From Escherichia coli (GTDB lineage: Bacteria; Pseudomonadota; Gammaproteobacteria; Enterobacterales; Enterobacteriaceae): a DNA stretch of 64,000 nucleotides. The stretch lies in assembly GCF_002854065.1 (NCBI RefSeq), contig NZ_CP024147.1; one strand, given 5' to 3'. The notes beneath the pieces were generated by a model. The model did no database searches. It saw only the letters and a list, made by a program, of their open reading frames with translations, and was not told where the DNA came from. Positions within the stretch are counted from its first letter, which is position 1. Each line of letters opens with the position of its first letter. A program made the translations under genes and the position numbers. Below, piece after piece: positions 41,540 through 41,672 of this stretch.

Positions 41540-41672
41540 TTGCTCCTGCCATAACGTGAAGAAGCAATGACCTGGTGGTCCGTGACTTCCCTACGCTGGC
41601 ATTATCCAGATCAGGTGATACGGGTATTTCTCAGCCTTCACGCAGAAGGGCACCCCGAGTCGTTTGGTTGCG
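41540..41672 (-). promoter_or_regulatory. TPP (thiamine pyrophosphate) riboswitch, thiM leader
   Basis: Minus-strand sequence ...aaccaaacgactcggggtgcccttctgcgtgaaggctgagaaatacccgtatcacctgatctggataatgccagcgtagggaagtcacggaccaccaggtcattgcttcttcacgttatggcaggagcaaact-ATG matches the thiM THI-box aptamer. Confidence 0.8.

Follow-up and report, generated by a model that had tools for sequence, protein, structure and literature searches.

What RNA occupies the long untranslated stretch upstream of thiM on this Escherichia coli contig (NZ_CP024147.1), and by what route could it act on the genes behind it? The window, i.e., the whole stretch of 64,000 nucleotides that was analyzed, carries on its minus strand rcnR (an ORF at 41759..42031, with the divergent rcnA beyond), the leader in question, and thiM. 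The initial annotation assigned positions 41540..41672 to a TPP riboswitch controlling thiM-thiD, with a THI-box aptamer on the minus strand, and named a covariance-model search as the way to check it. That search agreed with the assignment. A cmscan of 40500..42700 against all 4,227 Rfam families returned a single match, to RF00059 (TPP), on the minus strand at 41571..41667, with 71.2 bits and an E value of 1.7e-13. The score lies 17 bits above the gathering score of the family (54.3), and the match is untruncated, spanning model positions 1-105 of 105. When the entire 64-kb window was scanned with Rfam at gathering threshold, a single TPP element was found at the same coordinates (E value, 5.1e-12).

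The aptamer (41571..41667, minus strand) has the architecture of a TPP-binding THI element. Standard base pairs were found at 21 of the 23 Rfam consensus pairs mapped onto it, the exceptions being C10-A89 and C24-A35. According to this pair map, P1 (41661..41658 with 41587..41584) closes a three-way junction with a pyrimidine sensor arm, built from P2 (41657..41654 with 41624..41621) and P3 (41651..41647 with 41638..41634), and a pyrophosphate sensor arm, built from P4 (41615..41612 with 41593..41590) and P5 (41609..41606 with 41599..41596). The optional P3a stem is missing, which the RF00059 model allows. The invariant CUGAGA of J3-2 (41634..41629) is part of the Rfam match, the THI-box core ACCUGAUCUGGAUAAUGCCAGCG...GGGAA (41616..41585) is intact, and so are all the ligand-contact motifs of the TPP aptamer. 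Model score, junction architecture, contact sequences, and leader location all agree with the family, and TPP binding rests on the literature for the identical sequence. We conclude that the element is almost certainly the thiM TPP riboswitch of E. coli, acting in cis from within the thiMD leader. The initial annotation had also held that this RNA escapes ORF-based annotation; that is so for a purely ORF-based view, but RefSeq/PGAP carries a feature labeled "riboswitch / TPP riboswitch" on exactly the same 97 nt in both MG1655 and the strain closest to the window.

The identity of the element with that of E. coli K-12 is complete. The 501 nt around it are 100% identical to K-12 MG1655 and to many other strains; this region was found in 5,424 of 5,426 complete E. 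coli genomes, and the 153-nt leader alone has at least 99% identity in 4,353 of those 5,424. A chance covariance match or a decayed, nonfunctional aptamer remnant could in principle give a similar picture, and one truncated aptamer copy does exist in a relative (Enterobacter sp. BIGb0383); beyond that copy, this reading draws on general possibility only. The E value of 1.7e-13 for a full-length match, the margin over the gathering score, the intact contact motifs, and the identity to a functional K-12 element that is so widely conserved all speak against it, and we give it practically no chance. The element is, rather, the thiM riboswitch proper. In the "165 thiM" numbering, in which nt N corresponds to window position 41672-N, residues G40-U46, G60, A61, A84, A85, G86, and U87 of Rentmeister et al. 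2007 (PMC1920254) land on matching bases, as do A96-A99, G100, G101, nt 108-111 (CUUC), and G126-G129. Compared with the K-12 thiM riboswitch (RF00059), the genes and the residue numbering are the same, and the leader and its flanks are identical.

The window element is therefore the reference thiM riboswitch itself, already known, and this copy adds nothing new to it. The K-12 thiM TPP riboswitch has been under study for more than 20 years; its first description is reportedly that of Winkler, Nahvi, and Breaker (2002), and a crystal structure with TPP reportedly followed in 2006. For the identical sequence, TPP binding, a response of thiM′-′lacZ to thiamine/TPP, and rescue by compensatory changes in the Shine-Dalgarno (SD) and anti-SD sequences have all been reported. 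For TPP binding in particular, PMC1920254 cites both probing and crystal structures.

The genes under its control are well defined, as the initial annotation had claimed. The regulated gene thiM (40748..41536, minus strand; RefSeq WP_001195564.1) encodes a hydroxyethylthiazole kinase of 262 aa, matching TIGR00694 with 341 bits (cut-off, 256), and thiD (39951..40751, minus strand) encodes an HMP/HMP-P kinase of 266 aa, matching TIGR00097 with 363 bits (cut-off, 205). The stop of thiM and the start of thiD overlap by 4 nt, from which we infer that the two genes are cotranscribed. The 3′ end of the aptamer lies 34 nt from the thiM AUG on the same strand, with thiD next. Small ORFs overlapping the leader, such as those at 41445..41567 (minus strand, 40 aa) and 41567..41773 (plus strand, 68 aa), were weighed as leader peptides and dropped for want of support; the RNA explains the region fully.

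The limits of the leader were drawn from published mutants. The AUG mutant U152A and the ribosome-binding-site (RBS) mutant G142C of Bastet et al. 2017 (PMC5499598) fix nt N of that numbering at window position 41687-N, so that G142 is 41545, the second G in GGAG, and the transcription start would lie at 41686 (minus strand). If this implied start is used, the 5′ untranslated region is 150 nt long (41686..41537), which fits the earlier suggestion that the aptamer explains a long 5′ untranslated region. A consensus scan (9/12) placed a promoter-like site for thiMD at 41693..41721 on the minus strand, with a −35 element TTTACA (41721..41716), a 17-nt spacer, and a −10 element TACCAT (41698..41693); by pattern match, and with its −10 element ending 7 nt before the implied start, this site is the putative thiMD promoter. 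The originally assigned interval, 41540..41672, proved accurate for what it covers, namely the aptamer, the anti-SD, and the SD GGAG, and ends 4 nt short of the thiM AUG. The functional unit exceeds it at both ends, with the promoter and transcription start (about 41686) upstream, and with platform pairing into the ORF to about 41514. The latter part takes in the AUG of thiM (41536..41534) together with about 22 nt of coding sequence (41514..41536 in all, minus strand), as seen in the aptamer-enforced fold described below and in PMC5499598, where residues 151-172, i.e., the first ORF nucleotides, are assigned to the thiM expression platform.

How the aptamer could be coupled to thiM was examined by folding the 165-nt RNA with ViennaRNA in two ways, unconstrained and with the Rfam pairs of the aptamer imposed to mimic bound TPP. 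In the free minimum free energy (MFE) structure (−49.1 kcal/mol), the switching strand in the 3′ half of the aptamer, UGCCAGCGUAGGGAAGUCA (nt 71-89; 41583..41601, minus strand), pairs with nt 106-125, including GAAG (nt 83-86) with CUUC. This helix was also seen by chemical and enzymatic probing (PMC1920254). With the aptamer enforced, the same strand is held in P5, P4, and P1. The anti-SD block UUGCUUCUUCA (nt 105-115; 41557..41567, minus strand; core CUUC at 41564..41561) thus pairs with GAAG in the free fold or with GGAG in the enforced one, where nt 105-113 pair with nt 125-132. The SD GGAG (nt 126-129; 41543..41546, minus strand), 6 nt before the AUG, is open in the former and masked in the latter; the pairing probability of its first three bases rises from 0.23-0.36 in the free ensemble to 1.0 in the aptamer-enforced one. 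One strand can therefore pair with either the aptamer or the SD in a mutually exclusive manner, as expected of an SD-sequestering platform.

The linker between the aptamer and the anti-SD block takes part in the predicted switch as well. It forms a small hairpin, GACC/ACCA/GGUC (nt 92-103; 41569..41580, minus strand), in the predicted free fold; in the aptamer-enforced MFE structure, nt 91-95 instead pair with nt 154-158 and nt 98-103 (CAGGUC) with nt 145-150, the contacts lying within codons 4 to 8 and the latter involving GACCUG of codons 4 and 5. Probing placed a linker loop at A96-A99, and the mutant G100C/G101C binds TPP but loses control (PMC1920254); the linker pairing in the two-state fold would therefore account for a mutant that binds without regulating. 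The SD was also protected on TPP addition in probing (PMC1920254), and the published OFF model contains an "RBS/AUG sequestering stem" (PMC5499598). Our folds, as predictions, reproduce the published ON and OFF models of the thiM switch.

Taken with the published data, these folds give the following sequence of events. The aptamer (41667..41571) binds thiamine pyrophosphate. Without TPP, nt 71-89 would pair with nt 106-125, the anti-SD CUUC included, leaving GGAG free, so that both thiM and thiD could be translated. With TPP bound, P1, P4, and P5 would be locked and the downstream strand released; the released CUUC and its neighbors would then pair with GGAG and the linker with the first codons, and 30S binding would be blocked. 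An untranslated thiM mRNA would expose a C-rich rut site at about codons 15 to 30, and Rho would terminate transcription within approximately the first 40 thiM codons, so that protein and mRNA would both drop. Aptamer identity, sequence identity, gene context, and the availability of both folds were computed here; that TPP binds, that translation is repressed, and that Rho then acts is taken from the literature.

Since TPP does lower thiM mRNA (PMC5499598), control by an intrinsic, Rho-independent terminator has to be weighed too. Attenuation of this kind is an established and common TPP riboswitch design in Firmicutes, and the riboswitches of Bacillus thiamine operons share the fold and the ligand of the thiM element while using an intrinsic terminator as output. 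Such an output is absent at thiM: a search of both strands of 41400..42200 gave no terminator-like site, i.e., no stem followed by a U tract, and a mere 34 nt, taken up by the linker and the SD, separate the aptamer from the AUG. Moreover, the published drop in mRNA upon TPP addition is sensitive to bicyclomycin and has been traced to Rho sites within the ORF (PMC5499598). We therefore rejected the reading of this leader as an intrinsic terminator or attenuator, and its probability is minute.

The Rho sites themselves can be placed in the window. A C-rich, G-poor rut region at about 41494..41465, together with the termination sites, occupies 41425..41494 (minus strand), according to the converted coordinates of PMC5499598 and to GC skew. 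The Rho-protected nt 201-210 of that study correspond to 41486..41477, and its termination sites at nt 231, 237, and 262 correspond to 41456, 41450, and 41425, respectively. At 41470..41494, the GC skew of the plus strand climbs to +1.0, so that the mRNA strand is free of G there. Both this composition and the published protection and termination sites could also be read as Rho-dependent termination being the primary, direct output, with translational masking secondary. However, mutants of the RBS and the AUG lower the mRNA level irrespective of TPP, and thiM codons 9 to 34 placed behind the btuB riboswitch transfer the effect (PMC5499598), both of which indicate that translation arrest is what brings Rho into play; that Rho comes first is very unlikely. 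According to the published data, then, thiM is controlled by SD masking with secondary Rho-dependent termination.

A related point concerns the segment between the rcnR stop and the −35 element of thiM (41722..41758), which holds only a weak A/U hairpin, AAAAC-UGCC-GUUUU. The terminator scan of 41400..42200 likewise gave no intrinsic terminator after rcnR. By this sequence layout, rcnR transcripts might read through into the thiM leader and be gated there by the riboswitch and Rho.

The conservation of both folds was then assessed across species. A scan of species-representative genomes with the THI-box core pattern yielded at least 120 stretches in many phyla, and among the matches listed, the pattern stood directly upstream of a thiM homologue (tblastn with the window ThiM) in 24 loci, of which one is the MG1655 copy (L001) and 23 belong to other organisms. 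We analyzed 19 leaders, mostly from Enterobacterales, that share the GACUCGGGGUG motif with the window. In all 19, which are thiM-linked and come from other species, the aptamer, the CUUCUU block, and the SD are retained, and the CUUC-type pyrimidine block is conserved amid a variable linker. Plain MAFFT gave an alignment (A1) with a ragged expression platform; it was replaced by a realignment (A2) to a covariance model (R1) built on the bound-state structure, which leans toward the structure being tested. Row L047:11792-11934 of A2 represents a truncated copy of the aptamer and not a true leader, and slightly lowers the pair percentages.

On this realignment of 21 leaders, the bound-state structure had standard pairs in 88.4% of cells, versus 38 to 55% with slid partners. 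Pairs changed on both sides numbered 14, versus a shuffle mean of 7.8, and none of 500 shuffles reached 14. These compensatory changes sit in P3, the linker hairpin, and the outer sequestering helix; in the linker hairpin, two pairs are changed on both sides, in 5 and 8 of the 21 sequences, respectively. The core CUUC:GGAG pairs are kept in 18 to 19 of the 21 sequences. For the ON-state helix, 69% of cells were paired, versus 36 to 51% when slid, and its GGGAAG:CUUCUU core pairs are kept in 16 to 20 of the 21 leaders. P1, P2, P4, and P5 are invariant among the 21, and P4 and P5 were fixed by the search pattern, so that these stems yield no covariation evidence; the family-wide covariation of the TPP aptamer rests on the Rfam seed alignment and not on these leaders.

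Energy-based tests on the same leaders were less discriminating. The mean pairing probability of the SD over the 19 orthologous leaders was 0.71 free versus 0.76 with the aptamer enforced, in an equilibrium nearest-neighbor model in which the states lie a few kcal/mol apart; the SD did not open consistently, and most orthologs gave no clear contrast between an open and a closed state. E. albertii, with a single linker base different, had 0.87 free versus 1.00 enforced, compared with 0.36 free in the window. Equilibrium folding of this kind is too coarse to serve as independent proof, and the result for the orthologs is not evidence against the switch. When the linker:SD and aptamer-3′-half:linker duplexes were evaluated with RNAduplex, 2 to 98 of 300 linker shuffles per sequence equaled the real energy; with such short motifs and pyrimidine-rich linkers, the test discriminates weakly.

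In silico folds of the platform alone point to possible differences among relatives. Escherichia and E. cloacae are predicted to mask the RBS by CUUC:GGAG. In Pseudescherichia, Citrobacter werkmanii, Enterobacter sp. Bisph1, Serratia oryzae, and Mixta (L110, L022, L012, L054, and L044), on the other hand, a CCUG..CCGG:CCGG..CAGG hairpin is predicted whose loop holds CUUCUU. All seven folded platforms are predicted to form the ON-state helix with the aptamer 3′ half. It is possible, if rather doubtful, that CUUCUU is primarily an "anti-aptamer" strand common to all lineages and that its anti-SD role is specific to Escherichia and a few relatives. If true, the best-studied translational riboswitch platform would have been rewired among close relatives. 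A conserved ON-state helix next to a possibly variable RBS-masking helix may hold some minor interest for specialists in riboswitches.

The truncated copy mentioned above deserves a description of its own. In Enterobacter sp. BIGb0383, a second, truncated thiM aptamer (11792..11934, minus strand) is found some 2 kb upstream from the intact one (9652..9787, minus strand), with two unannotated ORFs (205 and 158 aa) on the opposite strand in between. It equals the intact copy up to ...GCCAGCGUA and then gives way to unrelated AT-rich DNA, so that the 3′ strands of P4 and P1 are absent. This arrangement suggests an insertion event in which the 5′ portion of the riboswitch was duplicated.

Several other features of the window were recorded. 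An IS1B element lies just 3′ of rcnB (43534..44700), and its two ORFs (43779..44282 and 44201..44476, minus strand) match the NCBIfam model transpos_IS1 with 143.8 and 90 bits. In strain 100416, whose region is identical, IS1B stands beside a 153-nt remnant of yehA, followed directly by apbC and metG; given that IS1B and the remnant adjoin these genes, the yehABCDE fimbrial operon has been largely lost. This junction means that the window strain is not MG1655, from which it differs by IS1B and the yeh operon loss 2 kb away, with the thiM leader untouched. Among the matches listed for a 1,401-nt query across the junction, only strains 100416 and CUWW06 align as an uninterrupted piece at 100% identity.

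Further structured RNAs were found outside the thiM locus. A SIB RNA (RF00113, an Ibs/Sib type I antitoxin sRNA) lies at 10066..10212 (plus strand; 150.2 bits) and is the single copy in the window at or above the gathering score; K-12 presumably carries a tandem sibA/sibB pair in this neighborhood. A full-length CyaR/RyeE sRNA (RF00112) is encoded at 24311..24396 (plus strand; 100.7 bits). The Peptidase-S11 RNA motif (RF03039; 72.8 bits) at 63100..63180 (minus strand) sits immediately 5′ of a gene (62163..63104, minus strand) for a 313-aa D-alanyl-D-alanine endopeptidase of the PbpG/PBP7 type (NF008668, 599 bits) and is a candidate cis-regulatory leader of that gene.

The E. coli thiC and tbpA (thiB) riboswitches have the same aptamer family at other loci with other expression platforms, and neither was found in the whole-window Rfam scan. 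PMC5234074 and PMC11487190 describe translational masking plus mRNA-level effects for both of them, and for thiC a regulatory pause at the start site, with transcription also regulated. Eukaryotic THIC riboswitches share the conserved aptamer fold and the ligand, but their output is alternative splicing and not SD masking.

The thiM riboswitch serves as a model for riboswitch folding, as a drug-target candidate, and as a part for synthetic biology. The value of recognizing it here lies in correct annotation: it accounts for the 150-nt thiMD leader and for the shut-off of the thiamine salvage genes by their end product.
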